Of a stretch of DNA of 64,000 nt, positions 4,415 to 56,247 are shown piece by piece (position 1 is the stretch's first letter; each line of letters starts with the position of its first letter). A program made the translations under genes and the position numbers. Below the pieces are notes generated by a model. That model did not search any database. It saw nothing but the letters and a program-made list of their open reading frames with translations, and was not told where the DNA came from. Origin of the DNA: Candidatus Binataceae bacterium (lineage in GTDB: Bacteria; Desulfobacterota; Binatia; Binatales; Binataceae); contig DATKML010000025.1 in the NCBI GenBank assembly GCA_035541875.1, forward strand, positions 149 through 64,148, in the 5' to 3' direction.

Positions 4415-4894
4415 ATGAACTTCAAGGTAATTGCTTCCGCGACGACGACTCTCGTTTTGCTGGGCTTCGTCGTCCTCTCGTCAGCCAAGGCTCAGGTCGG
4501 AGCGGCCCCGCCACCGCCCAATAAGCATCACGGCGAGGTGTGGGAGTGGTATCAGGGTGAAAAGGGTCATTGGCGCCAGGACAAGCACAATGGTGAGTGG
4601 CATTGGTTCGGCGCCAAGGAACATGGGGAGCATCACGAGCACGAAGAGACCGCTCAGGAGAACGGCCCATGGGAGTGGTATCAGGGTCACAAGGGTCACT
4701 GGCAGAAAGAGCACGGTGGATGGTCCTTCCACACGCCTGAGCTGGTCTGTAACAACGCGGGTAAGAACTGTCGCAGCGGTGGCGTTATCCCTCCCAATGG
4801 CGAGGGGATGGTGAGTGCGAAGAACCCGAAATGGTTCTGGCACTGCGATGAGGACGGCCATCATTGCGACTGGGCGAAACGCCCCGGGATGTAA
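4415..4894 (+). CDS. Secreted His/Trp-rich repeat protein of unknown function
   Basis: GGAGG SD; signal peptide; two WEWYQGxKGHW repeats; 4 C-terminal Cys. Confidence 0.75.
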   Translation: MNFKVIASATTTLVLLGFVVLSSAKAQVGAAPPPPNKHHGEVWEWYQGEKGHWRQDKHNGEWHWFGAKEHGEHHEHEETAQENGPWEWYQGHKGHWQKEHGGWSFHTPELVCNNAGKNCRSGGVIPPNGEGMVSAKNPKWFWHCDEDGHHCDWAKRPGM

Positions 4895-4928: not shown

Positions 4929-6128
4929 ATGGCAAATGCTGACGCAAAGGTAATCGACGCTGACGGACATATTCTCGAGCCGCCGGATCTCTGGGAGAAA
5001 TACCTCGAGGCCAAGTATCGTCCCGACGCGATCCGCTTACCTATCGGCGACGACGGGTACGAGTACCTCGAAGTCGCCGGCCATCGCGCGAAAACCGTTG
5101 CGCAGGGACAACTCGGTTCACTCGGCGGGATGGGCAAACAGGTCGAGGAGGCCACCCGCCGCCGCGAGCAGGCCGTCAACGCGGGCAAGGCCGAGTCGCT
5201 GCGCTATGCTAAGCCCAAGCCTGAAGATACTTATCTGCGCGGCGCGGCCTTCGGCACGATGGGTATGAAGGAGCGGATCGAACTGCTTGATCGCGAGCAG
5301 ATGGCGACCTCGATTCTCTATCCGACCCTCGGTCTGTTGTGGGAGGCGGAGACCGATAATGTCGAACTCTCCTCGGCCTACGCCCGCGCCTACAACCGAT
5401 GGATCGCGGATTTCTGCCGCGATTCGGGCGGACGGCTGATCCCGATCGCGCATATCTCCCTTGGCGATCCGGATGAGGCGGCGCGGGAACTGGAGCGAGC
5501 GGTCAAAGACGGATGCCGCGGAGCCTTCGTCGCACCGTTCACGATCTCAAAGCGTCCGCACGGCGATTCGGCGCACGATCGTTTCTTCGCAGTCGCACAG
5601 GATTGCAACGTTCCCGTCGCGATCCATCCGACGACTGAACCCGCCGCGCTTGGTATCCATCATCGCGACAACGGTTTCGGCTGGGCCGCCTGGTACTACG
5701 ACATGTTCGCAGGCCAGCCGGTGCAGCATGCCTTTGCGACCTTCTTTCAGCTCGGCGTCTTCGATCGTTTTCCCAAGTTGAAGGTAGTCGTGCTCGAAGC
5801 GGGAGCCGGATGGATCGGCTATTTCCTCGATCGCGCCGATGCGATCTTTACCGGCACGCCGATCGCGCAGACGGTGCGGCTCAAGGAGAAGCCATCCTAC
5901 TACTTCAAGGAGCGATGCTACATTTCGGCCGATCCCGACGAGCGCACGATCGCGGGCCTGATGACCCATGTGGGTGAGGACAAGTTTTTCTGGGCGAGTG
6001 ACTATCCCCATCCGGACCATCCGGGGAACTACCTCGAAGAGTTACAGGGACTGGTCGCTCCGATGACCGAATCCGGCCGCAGAGGGATTCTCGGGGCCAA
6101 CGTCGCAAAGGCTTACGGGTTGAGCTGA
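4929..6128 (+). CDS. Amidohydrolase family 2 protein
   Basis: IDADGHILEP, VAIHP, VVLEAGAGW, WASDYPHPD motifs. Confidence 0.88.
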   Translation: MANADAKVIDADGHILEPPDLWEKYLEAKYRPDAIRLPIGDDGYEYLEVAGHRAKTVAQGQLGSLGGMGKQVEEATRRREQAVNAGKAESLRYAKPKPEDTYLRGAAFGTMGMKERIELLDREQMATSILYPTLGLLWEAETDNVELSSAYARAYNRWIADFCRDSGGRLIPIAHISLGDPDEAARELERAVKDGCRGAFVAPFTISKRPHGDSAHDRFFAVAQDCNVPVAIHPTTEPAALGIHHRDNGFGWAAWYYDMFAGQPVQHAFATFFQLGVFDRFPKLKVVVLEAGAGWIGYFLDRADAIFTGTPIAQTVRLKEKPSYYFKERCYISADPDERTIAGLMTHVGEDKFFWASDYPHPDHPGNYLEELQGLVAPMTESGRRGILGANVAKAYGLS

Positions 6129-6144
6129 CAGCCAGAGATAATTC

Positions 6145-6189
6145 TGTCATTCGGAGACGAGTCCCCGAGCCGAAGAATCTCGCGGCTTC
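6145..6189 (+). repeat. Left inverted repeat (TGTC-tagged REP-like unit)
   Basis: TGTCATTCGGAGACGAGTCCCCGAGCCGAAGAATCTCGCGGCTTC. Confidence 0.85.
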
Positions 6190-6223
6190 CTCAGGCCGCT
6201 ATACGGACGTTCCACGGCCTTGC

Positions 6224-6507
6224 TCAGGTCCGTTCGTCGGTCAGATCGCGCCACTCGGGATTAATGCTTTCTATCAAACGAATCTTGGCGCCCGCGACAT
6301 CCCCTTGATCTGTTTCCCGCGGGCATTGCATCGCGGATATCTGAGAACTGTTCGAAATAGACTAACTGCTTCAGACTATATCGCGCAGTGAAGCCGCTGG
6401 GTCGGCCCGCTTTATGTTCACTCACTCTCCGCTCCGGATCATTGGTCACAGGGTCCAGGCAGGATTACTCATCATGTACACGTAGTAGAGGGCTCCCGAG
6501 AGCTCAT
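6224..6507 (-). pseudogene. Frameshifted small GIY-YIG nuclease (YhbQ-like)
   Basis: Fragments in different frames: YYVYMMSNPAWTL / VTNDPERRVSEHKAGRPSGFTARYSLKQLVYFEQFSDIRDA / ARGKQIKG / KIRLIESINPEWRDL; the YIG codons are deleted. Confidence 0.8.
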
Positions 6508-6576
6508 GGTTTGCTATGCCATGGCTGACTGAGTGCGAGAAAGCAAAGCAGTGGAACAGATCGACTGTGGCTCAAA

Positions 6577-6621
6577 GAAGCCGCGAGATTCTTCGGCTCG
6601 CCGACTCGCCTCTGAATGACA
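6577..6621 (-). repeat. Right inverted repeat (TGTC-tagged REP-like unit)
   Basis: Reverse complement reads TGTCATTCAGAGGCGAGTCGGCGAGCCGAAGAATCTCGCGGCTTC. Confidence 0.85.
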
Positions 6622-6636
6622 GATATGGTGCTAGGC

Positions 6637-7179
6637 TTAACTCTTCGCGACGGTTACCGGAACCTCGAAATGCAGCGACTGGGGCATCTTGCACATATTG
6701 TCGTTGCACTCCTGGAATTCGATCGTGCCGGATAGTTTGTAATCGCCCGGCCCGACGCTCGGCTTGAGTGCCACTTTGCCGGTCGCATCGAACTTACCCG
6801 TGTAGACCGGATAGGTCTCGCCCAGCGACTCGAACTTGAGCGGCGTCGGTTTCGGCATCGTCACCGCCTGATTCTGCAGTAGCTGATCGTCGAATTTGAC
6901 CTTGGTAGTGGTGAACTCGGTCGGCAGCGGCTCGCCGTAGATATGCCATCCCAGAGCGACATCGAAGGATACAGTTACACCGACCTGACCGCCGGGCTTG
7001 GTCTTCGAGCCCGAGAGCGCGACCTTGGCGGTTACGTCATCGCCCTTAACGACTACCGAGGGCGCATCGTCGGCGCGAACTATCGAGGGGAGGAGTGACG
7101 CTCCAGTTAGGACCGCGGCGAAGAGCAGAGTCCCTGAGTTCCTGTACTTACGCATCGGCAATCGTGTCGTCCTCATCAT
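6637..7179 (-). CDS. Stand-alone secreted DsbD N-terminal (alpha) domain protein
   Basis: Signal peptide, GWHIYG motif, C-terminal QECNDNMCKMP; GAGAGGT SD before 7179. Confidence 0.78.
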   Translation of the reverse strand: MMRTTRLPMRKYRNSGTLLFAAVLTGASLLPSIVRADDAPSVVVKGDDVTAKVALSGSKTKPGGQVGVTVSFDVALGWHIYGEPLPTEFTTTKVKFDDQLLQNQAVTMPKPTPLKFESLGETYPVYTGKFDATGKVALKPSVGPGDYKLSGTIEFQECNDNMCKMPQSLHFEVPVTVAKS

Positions 7180-7260
7180 CGAAACCGCACCTCTCATCTT
7201 CCACAATTCCTTCGCGGCTCACCTGCGTCAATCACCTTAGGAATCTGTCTCCCTCTAGAT

Positions 7261-7320
7261 CCCTCTCCCCGATGGGAGAGGGTGGAGCGACAGGCCGCAG
7301 GCCAGTCGCGAGGGTGCGGG
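7261..7320 (+). repeat. CCCTCTCCC/GGGAGAGGG-type palindromic repeat, left copy
   Basis: Imperfect inverted partner at 7489-7549; internal hairpin CCCTCTCCC-CGAT-GGGAGAGGG. Confidence 0.65.
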
Positions 7321-7340
7321 TCGTGAGCCATCAGACTTCG

Positions 7341-7376
7341 GGATTCTTCGCGGGGCAGCCACGCGCGAGAATGACA
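7341..7376 (-). repeat. TGTC-tagged REP-like unit nested between the CCCTCTCCC repeats
   Basis: Reverse complement TGTCATTCTCGCGCGTGGCTGCCCCGCGAAGAATCC. Confidence 0.65.
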
Positions 7377-7488
7377 TATTATCGATTCGCAGGATTTTTG
7401 AGGCCGGGGAGAAGGATCTTAGGAGGAGGCCAGAATCGCCGAACACTTTACGAGGACGGTCTGTGTCGGATAATCCTTTAGCATTCGA

Positions 7489-7549
7489 CCCTCACCCGCG
7501 TGTTCGGCGCAAGGCGCCCAACGCTTCGCCCTCTCCCATCGGGAGCGGG
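7489..7549 (-). repeat. CCCTCTCCC-type palindromic repeat, right copy
   Basis: CCCTCACCCG...CCCTCTCCCATCGGGAGCGGG, inverted relative to 7261-7320. Confidence 0.65.
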
Positions 7550-7589
7550 ATCTCAGATAGTGAGGAGATCGGGAGGCATTTTCCTTGAC

Positions 7590-8999
7590 ATGGCGGCGCA
7601 GACGCTTTTTCAAAAAATCTGGGACGGACATATCGTCCATGAAACGCCGGGACAACCGGCGCTCCTCTACATCGATTTGCATCTGGTGCACGAGGTGACT
7701 TCGCCGGTGGCCTTCGAGGGTCTGGCAAAGGCCGGACGCAAGGTCCGCCGCACCGATCGCACCTTCGCTACGCAGGACCATAACGTTCCGACCACCGACC
7801 GGTCGGTTCCGATTAGCAATGCCGAGTCCCGGACGCAGATCGAGATGATGCGGAAGAATTGCCGCGATTTCGGGGTGAAGCTTTTCGACCTCGGCGACCC
7901 CGAACAGGGTGTCGTTCACGTCATCGGTCCTGAGCTCGGTCTGACCCAGCCCGGGATGACGATCGTCTGTGGCGATAGCCATACGGCAACCCACGGCGCT
8001 TTTGGCTCGTTGGCCTTTGGTATCGGCACCAGCGAAGTCGAGCACGTGCTCGCGACGCAATGTCTCTGGCAGGCTAAGCCTAAGACGATGGAAATACGGG
8101 TCGACGGCAAGCTCGGGCTGGGCGTCGGCGCGAAGGACATTATCCTCGGGATTATCGGCAAGATTACGACCGATGGCGGCACCGGCTATGTGATCGAATA
8201 TAGCGGCTCGACGATCGAAGCGCTCACGATGGAAGAGCGGATGACCGTCAGCAATATGTCGATCGAGGGTGGGGCGCGCGCCGGCATGATCGCGGCGGAC
8301 CAGAAGACGATCGATTACCTGCGCGGACGTCGCTACGCGCCGTCGGGCAAGGACTTCGACAAAGCTGCCGAGAAGTGGCTCACCTATCGCACTGATGAGG
8401 GAGCCAAATTTGATCAGTCGATCAGCTTTAAAGCCGAAGATCTCGCTCCGCAGGTGACCTGGGGGACAAACCCCGGGATGGTGACTTCGGTGACCTCGAA
8501 GGTCCCCGATCCATCGAGCTTCCCCGATGCGACCCAGCGTCGCGCGGCCGAACTCGCGCTCGAATACATGGCCCTGCAGCCGGGAACGGCGATTCAGGAT
8601 ATCCCGATCGATTACGTTTTTATCGGCTCCTGCACCAATGGCCGGCTGTCGGATCTGCAGCAAGCTGCCGAGGTCGTGAAGGGGCGCAAGGTAGCGCCGC
8701 GCGTGACAGCGCTTGTAGTGCCGGGATCGCAGCAGGTGAAGGCCGAGGCCGAGAAGCTCGGGCTCGACAAGATTTTCACGCAGGCGGGCTTCGAATGGCG
8801 GGAATCCGGATGCAGTATGTGCCTCGGGATGAACCCCGATATCCTGCAGCCGGGCCAGCGATGCGCCAGCACGTCGAATCGTAACTTCGAGGGACGGCAG
8901 GGCAAGGGCGGCCGGACTCATCTGGTGAGCCCGATCATGGCCGCCGCAGCTGCGGTTGCGGGCCACTTCGTGGATTCGCGGGAATTAGCGAACAGGTAG
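7590..8999 (+). CDS. leuC: 3-isopropylmalate dehydratase large subunit
   Basis: [56 protein letters not shown]. Confidence 0.97.
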
Positions 9000-56180: not shown

Positions 56181-56247
56181 TTGTCATTCTGAGCGTAGCG
56201 AAGAATCCCGGGATTCTTCGTCGCCGCAGGGCTCCTCAGAATGACAA
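56181..56247. repeat. REPIN-like inverted doublet of TGTC-tagged units
   Basis: TTGTCATTCTGAG...GAAGAATCC-CG-GGATTCTTC...CTCAGAATGACAA folds into a long hairpin. Confidence 0.85.

Follow-up and report, generated by a model that had tools for sequence, protein, structure and literature searches.

A decayed SsnA-like nuclease gene between inverted TGTC-headed hairpin repeats in an uncultured Binataceae genome: probable relic of an SRM-ssn-SRM module

A 64,000-nucleotide stretch of DNA from a Candidatus Binataceae bacterium (contig DATKML010000025.1; the whole stretch is called the window below) contains at positions 6143-6623 an inverted repeat that encloses the remains of a small GIY-YIG nuclease gene. 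This element is very probably a decayed module of the type Ssn-related motif (SRM)-ssn-SRM, i.e. an SsnA-like gene between inverted TGTC-headed hairpin repeats. The Ssn family consists of GIY-YIG nucleases of ~94 amino acids that cut single-stranded DNA beside (C/T)GTC-headed hairpin repeats (NTS/SRM) flanking their own genes (Chenal et al., Nat Commun 2025, PMC11893778). The initial annotation of this DNA had proposed a new kind of mobile unit; that novelty does not hold, as the NTS/SRM-ssnA-NTS/SRM association was published in 2025 (PMC11893778). What can be added to the known module is modest: a variant class of repeats that the published pattern misses, and comparative signs of modular mobility.

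Background

The best-studied repeat of this kind, the NTS (CGTCATTCCCGCGMAVGCGGGAATCYRG), is the longer form of dRS3, and SsnA, a single-domain GIY-YIG protein of 94 amino acids, binds and cuts it (PMC11893778). SsnA cleaves single-stranded DNA only, in one orientation only and a few nucleotides 5' of the repeat; in N. meningitidis cleavage requires the residues Y6, Y17 and E64, and the NTS positions of greatest importance are the three bases preceding the palindrome and the C following it (PMC11893778). Orientation-specific cleavage has been published for the Neisseria and Wolbachia enzymes only (PMC11893778). Homologs of Ssn, defined by CDD cd10448 (GIY-YIG_unchar_3), are widespread, and 42% of them are flanked on both sides by SRMs (PMC11893778). 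A literature search for later papers on SsnA yielded nothing further.

The repeats themselves were described earlier as CGTC-tagged repetitive extragenic palindromic sequences (REPs), which in many cases have TGTC as their tag, have stems starting from AT and include the Neisseria dRS3; no dedicated transposase was found for them (Di Nocera et al. 2013, PMC3733652). The remark in the initial annotation that (C/T)GTC-tagged REPs have no characterised mobiliser describes the state of knowledge of 2013; the associated ssn gene was identified only in 2025. Its description of the element as an arrangement like that of the REP-associated tyrosine transposases (RAYTs), with a GIY-YIG nuclease in the place of the transposase, is the very analogy drawn by Chenal et al., who also note the likeness to insertion sequences (IS) and raise the hypothesis of mobility (PMC11893778).

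The inverted repeat and the nuclease pseudogene

The two arms of the inverted repeat, 6143-6189 on the plus strand and 6577-6623 on the minus strand, are 47 nt long, lie 387 nt apart and are complementary at 43 of 47 positions (91%). It is the longest inverted repeat within the window (the runner-up has 39 nt at 72%), and the chance expectation for such a pair of arms is ~1e-13 by a rough binomial estimate. The 45-bp repeats with 41/45 identity reported initially correspond exactly to 6145-6189 and 6577-6621. The left arm consists of a TGTC-headed hairpin unit at 6145-6180, TGTCATTCGGAGACGAGTCCCCGAGCCGAAGAATCT, followed by an inner extension of ~10 nt, TCGCGGCTTC. The right arm is an inverted copy of this unit, reading TGTCATTCAGAGGCGAGTCGGCGAGCCGAAGAATCT on the minus strand at 6586-6621, so that both heads point outward. 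Both arms begin with TGTCATTC, contain CGAAGAATC and continue for ~10 nt further inward as TCGCGGCTTC. The design TGTC-ATTC...AGAAT-C, with a (C/T)GTC head, a palindrome that starts from AT, a C directly after it and inverted copies on both sides, is that of the NTS, and the earlier description of the arms as TGTC-headed REP-like hairpins is correct. Rfam searches at gathering thresholds identified no family in the whole window. The possibility that the arms are terminators was considered and rejected: a terminator and promoter scan of 5900-7600 gave no terminator-like site, and a single promoter-like site, which lies outside the element.

Between the arms, three minus-strand frames combined spell a GIY-YIG protein. 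The pseudogene, of an Ssn-family (SsnA-like) single-domain nuclease, occupies 6224-6507 on the minus strand, from the ATG at 6507-6505 to the TGA stop at 6226-6224. Its conceptual translation has ~94-98 amino acids and PF01541 as the sole Pfam match (25.7 bits; cut-off 22.6), whereas NCBIfam gave no match; a second GIY-YIG gene was not found in the window. The lesions were mapped by DNA alignment to the intact relatives in loci L084, L109 and L088, and comprise four frame-breaking indels: an insertion of 5 bp at ~6489-6493, between the ATG and the first beta-strand, a deletion of 10 bp at 6449|6450, and deletions of 1 bp each at 6324|6325 and 6287|6288. The 10-bp deletion (ACC CTG, then the lost CTAYRCCGGC, then GTG ACC) takes out the codons for Tyr-Thr/Ala-Gly, of which the Tyr is the equivalent of Y17 in SsnA. 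In addition, the codon at 6316-6318 reads GGG versus GAG in the relatives, a Glu-to-Gly change at the equivalent of E64.

Of the catalytic trio, the equivalent of Y6 is thus kept, whereas those of Y17 and E64 are lost, which makes the window copy a non-functional Ssn-family member. It cannot work: the Y17 codon is deleted, E64 has become Gly, the frame is broken four times, and both arms lack one stem pair (see below). The initial annotation was right in describing the cargo as a dead GIY-YIG gene with further frameshifts. The deletion that it described does remove the motif Tyr; the motif of the relatives is TLY(T/A)GVT and not TLYIGVT.

Membership of the Ssn family

A tblastn search of a plasmid collection with the intact relative P0005 matched a 2.17-Mb replicon of N. 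gonorrhoeae (L175; NZ_CP119140.1, PLSDB). This replicon is filed as a plasmid and is evidently a chromosome, and the ssnA-type gene is unannotated there. Among complete genomes, those of Rhizobium, Sphingobium and Neisseria carry ssn. The gonococcal open reading frame (ORF) encodes 94 amino acids, has Y6, Y17 and E64, and lies in a region of 1.9 kb that contains 8 strict SRM/NTS matches. The conceptual protein of the window shares 40% identity with this protein over 70 residues (of 94; E 8e-18, pairwise), and the intact relative P0001 shares 39% over 89 residues (E 2e-22, pairwise). The family profile matches the gonococcal protein with 99.7% probability over 91 columns. In the 94-residue relatives P0003 and P0005 the residues Y6, Y17 and E64 are present and agree with the published numbering.

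For homology to SsnA, Chenal et al. used a BLAST E < 1e-10 with 75% coverage, and Ssn proteins are single-domain GIY-YIG proteins of fewer than 150 amino acids. With its ~94-98 amino acids and single domain the conceptual protein falls within the size limit, and we counted its match to the gonococcal protein as homology in the above sense. A different affiliation could have been with the UPF0213 proteins, the only structures, all of them distant, that a PDB sequence search returned (there was no Ssn structure among its matches). Against UPF0213 structures (1zg2, 1ywl), however, P0001 scored only 30.9 bits, versus 58-70 bits for the comparisons with the Neisseria SsnA type.

Intact relatives and their flanking repeats

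The intact relatives of the conceptual protein are 93-123 amino acids long, contain PF01541 alone and are ~55-62% identical to it; a profile search found at least 7995 clusters at E ≤ 1e-8. In the first three contexts inspected, TGTCAT...ATGACA or CGTCAT-type REPs surround the gene. For 80 metagenomic loci with intact relatives, the 220 bp upstream of the gene were aligned to the reverse complement of the 220 bp downstream, and segments shifted by 900 bp within these loci served as controls. An inverted repeat scoring at least 30 connected the flanks in 55 of the 76 loci for which both flanks were available (at least 40 in 34 of the 76), compared with only 1 of 107 displaced controls. The test proposed in the initial annotation thus has a positive outcome, since the great majority of intact homologs have inverted units of this family at their flanks. 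When flanks were paired between different loci, 15 of 76 pairs also scored at least 30, because the repeats are alike across loci: nearly all arms of the relatives read TGTCAT(C/T)C(T/C)GAG ... GAAG(G/A)ATC.

Covariation links the 5-mer that follows the (C/T)GTC head to the one that precedes the terminal C. The combinations ATCCT/AGGAT, ATTCT/AGAAT, ATTGC/GCAAT, ATTCC/GGAAT, ATCCC/GGGAT and ATGCT/AGCAT form a 6x6 table that is almost purely diagonal, which points to selection on the hairpin structure. Two further features, neither of them imposed by the search, are a C as the base following the stem (193 of 242 units), in agreement with the published key cytosine, and an inner part that starts and ends with GA (137 of 242). 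According to the covariation rule the fifth stem pair is lost in both arms of the window element. In the left arm ATTCG faces the tail AGAATC, whose partner in the relatives is ATTCT, and in the right arm ATTCA faces AGAAT.

The repeats around the relatives belong to a variant class in which the outer stem has 5 bp, the internal loop is GA..GA and the inner hairpin varies, being often GCGAAGC. Strict SRM matches flank only one of the 80 relatives (L144), and the other 79 loci miss the published pattern. In L144 the units on both sides, with their heads outward, match the Neisseria NTS within a limit of 4 substitutions (23/25 and 21/25 positions by our own count). The commonest unit, TGTCATCCTGAGCGAAGCGAAGGATC, contains GCGAAGC (e.g. 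L124:2446-2482, L146:2448-2478 and L098:1861-1897), and a full-text search for the commonest repeat strings retrieved only unrelated papers. The oligonucleotide d(GCGAAGC) and sequences with a GNA triloop fold into DNA mini-hairpins of unusual stability, and tandem GA/GA mismatches are stable as well. Such features would suit recognition of the repeat as single-stranded DNA.

The orientation of the units varies. Among the nearest perfect units, outward-pointing heads were counted in 19 loci, inward-pointing heads in 12 and units that point the same way in 10, and the fixed terminal inverted repeats of the initial annotation are therefore too simple a picture. Proteins that share a stem type are more alike (62.6% versus 58.4% identity), a difference that was reached in 0 of 2000 permutations. 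This correlation fits co-adaptation of enzyme and repeat and could equally reflect shared ancestry.

In several relatives the gene overlaps the repeat, or its start codon lies in the left arm. The ORF called for P0002 extends into the repeat and ends in ...DPSLRSG, and in L125 the start codon is found inside the left arm (..GGATCTATG..; arm 776-845, gene 839-1123). Expression signals may thus overlap the repeat units.

Repeat units elsewhere in the window

Beyond the two arms, three units of the same kind were identified in the window. A single unit on the minus strand at 7341-7376, TGTCATTCTCGCGCGTGGCTGCCCCGCGAAGAATCC, is the best-preserved NTS-like hairpin of the window (fold -7.6 kcal/mol, z -1.8) and is almost identical to the arms around the closest intact relatives, L084 and L109. 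The other two form a gene-less doublet at 56182-56208 (plus strand) and 56211-56246 (minus strand), arranged tail to tail with the heads outward (TGTCATTCTGAGCGTAGCGAAGAATCC and the reverse complement of TGTCATTCTGAGGAGCCCTGCGGCGACGAAGAATCC). As single-stranded DNA, the 81-nt region of this doublet has a fold of -21.2 kcal/mol (z -4.8), and 0 of 200 shuffles were equally stable. The doublet carries GCGTAGC where the commonest unit of the relatives has GCGAAGC. The earlier statement that the repeats are dispersed in the window is thus only partly true and comes down to these three additional units. The full units are convincing, whereas searches of the window with short motifs gave no more matches than expected by chance.

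A different palindromic element at 7262-7281, CCTCTCCCCGATGGGAGAGG, adjoins the single TGTC unit and occurs once in the window. A similar sequence (...CTCTCCCCGATGGGAGAGGC...) is present in the corresponding spacer of L010, and the palindrome is probably a member of another repeat family found in these genomes.

The locus and its neighbours

The element lies between two convergent genes. An amidohydrolase gene (PF04909; 4929-6128, plus strand) converges on it from the left, with its stop 14 nt from the left arm, and a gene for a DsbD_N-domain protein (PF11412; 6637-7155, minus strand) ends 13 nt from the right arm. The closest relatives of the amidohydrolase (69-84% identity) are from metagenome-assembled genomes (MAGs) named Candidatus Binataceae or Binatia, or with older labels such as Deltaproteobacteria. 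The order cyclase, amidohydrolase, converging DsbD_N gene is kept in many related genomes, but the spacer between the last two genes is variable. It measures ~13-25 nt between the stops in L050, L055, L058 and L076, and ~80-120 nt, mostly with a GC-rich hairpin, in L015, L019, L023, L036, L051, L052, L056, L059 and L061. Such short spacers without the element correspond, as absence by synteny, to the empty sites that the initial annotation had suggested looking for. In L017, L040 and L048 the spacer is occupied by gene-less doublets of TGTC-headed units, and in the closest relative (L004, amidohydrolase 84%) it holds, at 6180-7608, unrelated ORFs of 82, 265 and 126 amino acids. The spacer between the convergent genes thus appears to be an insertion hotspot. 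No GIY-YIG match was obtained in the 80 loci with amidohydrolase relatives, which implies that the element was gained in the lineage of the window or lost elsewhere, and that the spacer is a variable spot. The doublet of L017 was considered as an orthologous remnant from which the gene had been deleted, and was rejected in that role, as it has no real homology to the window element.

In L048 a direct duplication of 59 nt (6206-6264 and 6602-6660, 95% identical), which includes a terminator hairpin, flanks a gene-less TGTC composite; its second copy begins directly after a ...GGGAATGACA head. A 20-nt remnant at similar spacing (400 versus 396 nt in L048) is seen in L040 (1795-1814 and 2195-2214). 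The duplication in L048 is too long to resemble ordinary target-site duplications.

Upstream of the amidohydrolase gene, the window contains two tandem paralogous cyclase genes (PF04199; 2673-3329 and 3691-4344) with 75-82% identical DNA, and one or two copies are found at this place in many relatives as well. The gene at 4415-4894 encodes a predicted secreted protein of 159 amino acids without a Pfam family, which is rich in His and Trp and contains the internal repeat WEWYQG.KGHW; the gene includes a DNA repeat (4541-4574 and 4670-4703, 91%). One contig with an amidohydrolase relative, L033 (CAMBFS010000092.1), is labelled as a Klebsiella pneumoniae MAG and carries a Binatia-like amidohydrolase (72%), which is probably a binning or labelling error.

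Modules in unrelated flanks

Several pairs of intact modules resemble one another much more closely than their surroundings do. L105 and L153 are 94% identical over 543 bp in unalignable flanks, and L115 and L128 are 91% identical over 541 bp, with the borders at the tails (AAAAGCAGGTCCTTCGC... and ...GCGAAGGACCTGCTT). The pair L125/L129 shows 87% identity, and the pair L123/L125 83%, with borders that lie beyond the heads, by ~24 nt on the left and by 3 nt on the right. In these pairs the homology stops at the repeat units, despite hundreds to thousands of bases of unalignable flank. No target-site duplication was seen at the borders of the L123 and L125 modules, and none that is convincing at the window element, the flanks of which read ...GAGATAAT|TC and GA|TATGGTG.... 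Within a doublet, the loops of the two arms are often different. Identical Ssn proteins were not found in several contexts: P0025 (24 contigs) and P0007 (9 contigs) each have one context. Taken together, the syntenic absence of the element and the near-identical modules in unrelated flanks suggest that the module has, on balance, moved as a unit in the past.

By analogy with the Neisseria and Wolbachia enzymes, an intact Ssn protein would bind the folded repeat as single-stranded DNA only and in one orientation. It would read the bases immediately 5' of the palindrome as well as the C on its immediate 3' side, and would nick a few nucleotides 5' of the head. The window element itself would be an inert relic, and any activity on the three better-preserved units of the window would require that the genome has an intact ssn gene outside the window. 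Since SsnA cuts one orientation of the repeat, an inverted pair would receive one cut per strand, and not the two cuts on the same strand that are typical of IS200/IS605.

Alternative explanations

That the element is a decayed SRM-ssn-SRM module has to be weighed against coincidence, i.e. an ordinary small GIY-YIG gene of the UPF0213/YhbQ type that decayed where REP-type repeats had gathered on both sides. REP-type repeats do accumulate between convergent genes, gene-less doublets occupy the same spacer in other genomes, and the short-motif searches in the window gave nothing above chance. Further points weigh against the Ssn assignment. The published SRM pattern, HGTCWYN(0-2)YYVSBRHN(0-5)WNVSBRGN(0-2)RNCYNB, has 0 matches in the whole window, where the published definition asks for at least one SRM within 500 bp on both sides of the gene and the positive control, the region of 1.9 kb around the gonococcal gene, gives its 8 matches. 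Only a looser definition, consisting of head, palindrome and C, admits the arms, whose stems are imperfect and whose hairpins, taken singly, are no more stable than shuffled sequences. Identity to the nearest relatives is no higher than ~60%, and the gonococcal protein, for which length, residue positions and NTS context are the grounds for taking it as the SsnA ortholog, is a stand-in for SsnA of N. meningitidis. Finally, the empty sites represent absence by synteny and are not nucleotide-precise, as the neighbouring proteins are ~70-84% identical and the spacers unalignable. Coincidence is nevertheless extremely improbable in view of the inverted repeats that flank the relatives and are virtually missing from the displaced controls, of the arms, whose mutual match (43/47) is far closer than their match to the window's other units, and of the bit scores, which are clearly higher against the Neisseria SsnA type (58-70) than for P0001 against UPF0213 (31). 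We therefore retain the decayed Ssn module as very probable, and file its repeats as a putative variant class that follows the NTS design and is missed by the published pattern.

A separate matter is what intact modules of this kind do. They could be autonomous elements comparable to the 'REPtrons' of RAYTs, in which nicking by Ssn beside the hairpins starts the movement of both gene-bearing units and gene-less doublets, and by which the TGTC/CGTC REPs have been spread. The presence of the element in the window and its absence from the same spacer in 13 relatives, with doublets there in three others, agree with such mobility, as do the repeat-bounded modules that are 83-94% identical in unalignable flanks, the pseudogenisation, which is typical for selfish elements, and the greater likeness of proteins that share a stem type; the idea is also the one raised in the 2025 paper. 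To our knowledge, however, GIY-YIG enzymes perform cleavage only, and neither a covalent intermediate nor strand-transfer, ligation or rejoining chemistry is known for them. An inverted pair with one cuttable orientation would be cut once per strand, target-site duplications are lacking at the window element and at the L123/L125 modules, the orientations of the units are mixed, and the arms of doublets often differ in their loops. Moreover, the identical proteins P0025 and P0007 are each confined to a single context, and the relation between protein and stem type could be plain shared ancestry. We regard the autonomous element as possible, with the chances somewhat against it, and the more specific proposition that the nuclease itself is the agent of movement as likewise less likely than not. 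The most far-reaching form of the proposal is unlikely in our view: that SRM-ssn-SRM units are true mobile units and Ssn the mobiliser of the whole CGTC/TGTC REP superfamily, and that the nuclease starts a movement which host repair or replication brings to its end. In this reading the large soil clade uses a hairpin class (5-bp stem, GA/GA loops, GCGAAGC mini-hairpin) which the published pattern misses.

Alternatively, Ssn may be part of a system kept by the host, as proposed for Neisseria, where it would restrict or shape the recombination of repeat-bearing single-stranded DNA; the repeats near the gene would then reflect regulation or local turnover, and the window copy would be a lost host gene. 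In N. meningitidis, SsnA lowers transformation by NTS-bearing DNA (PMC11893778). A domesticated role is also in line with the single locus that identical proteins keep across many samples, with the very large and conserved protein family, and with the hairpin covariation, which implies that the structure is under selection. On the other hand, near-identical modules in unrelated flanks and a patchy syntenic presence are unexpected for a purely vertical gene, and the window copy has decayed and hence is not under selection in this lineage. For the modules considered here we find a host-kept system rather unlikely as well.

Significance

The window element is a dead copy of a module type that had been published before, and by itself changes little. 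It does extend the association of Ssn with repeats to uncultured soil lineages, i.e. the Binataceae and many metagenomic contigs. Since the published SRM pattern catches only 1 of the 80 loci studied here, the published share of flanked homologs (42%) may be an underestimate. The unoccupied syntenic spacers and the modules of 83-94% identity provide comparative evidence for movement as discrete units, which the 2025 paper put forward only as a hypothesis. The genes of L084 and L109, together with TGTCATTCTCGCGCGTGGCTGCCGCGCGAAGAATCC, represent concrete enzyme-repeat pairs. If the nuclease should indeed drive the spread of the repeats, the origin of the CGTC-type REPs, open since 2013, would be settled.

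Comparison with known systems

Several known systems share single features with the module. The GIY-YIG homing endonucleases (I-TevI, Seg) have a separate DNA-binding domain, whereas here the catalytic domain of ~94 amino acids stands alone. The UPF0213/YhbQ-type proteins (PDB 1zg2, 1ywl) are alike in fold family and size, and only distantly similar in sequence (P0001 versus 1zg2, 30.9 bits); we know of no association of these proteins with repeats. Classical insertion sequences and miniature inverted-repeat transposable elements have inverted repeats, as found here, but the target-site duplication that goes with them is not convincing in our case. The IS200/IS605 elements resemble the module in their subterminal hairpins, which are recognised as single-stranded DNA, and in the absence of target-site duplication. 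They differ in having asymmetric ends on the same strand and a Y1 HUH enzyme that cuts and rejoins, whereas the module has inverted-copy ends and a simple nuclease.

The resemblance to the RAYT/REPIN 'REPtrons' (Nunvar 2010, PMC2817692; PMC3733652) is more extensive: in both cases one small nuclease gene is flanked by inverted hairpin repeats that are also scattered as singlets and doublets, and in both single-stranded DNA hairpins are recognised, a resemblance that is functional only. The REPtrons encode an HUH/Y1 (IS200-like) transposase and their repeats have a GTAG or GGAG head, whereas the gene here encodes a GIY-YIG protein (PF01541 as sole Pfam match) and the head is TGTC or CGTC. With the CGTC-tagged REPs (Di Nocera 2013), such as the Neisseria dRS3 and the Rickettsia RPE-4/6, the repeats share the unpaired CGTC/TGTC end tag, the A-T start of the stem, the frequent dimers and the intergenic location. 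The stems of 8-9 bp and loops of 4-5 nt described there contrast with the shorter outer stem and the longer, variable interiors found here.

Finally, the Ssn/NTS-SRM system differs from the window element in several respects. The window copy is dead and its repeats are outside the published SRM pattern; its host belongs to an uncultured soil lineage of the Binataceae; and the window gene lies inside one doublet with the heads outward, whereas the nearest units of the gonococcal gene face inward. The two have in common a GIY-YIG-only protein of ~94 amino acids, with 40% identity between the window copy and the gonococcal SsnA-type protein, a gene bracketed by inverted (C/T)GTCAT-headed repeats, and gene-less copies of these repeats elsewhere in the genome.

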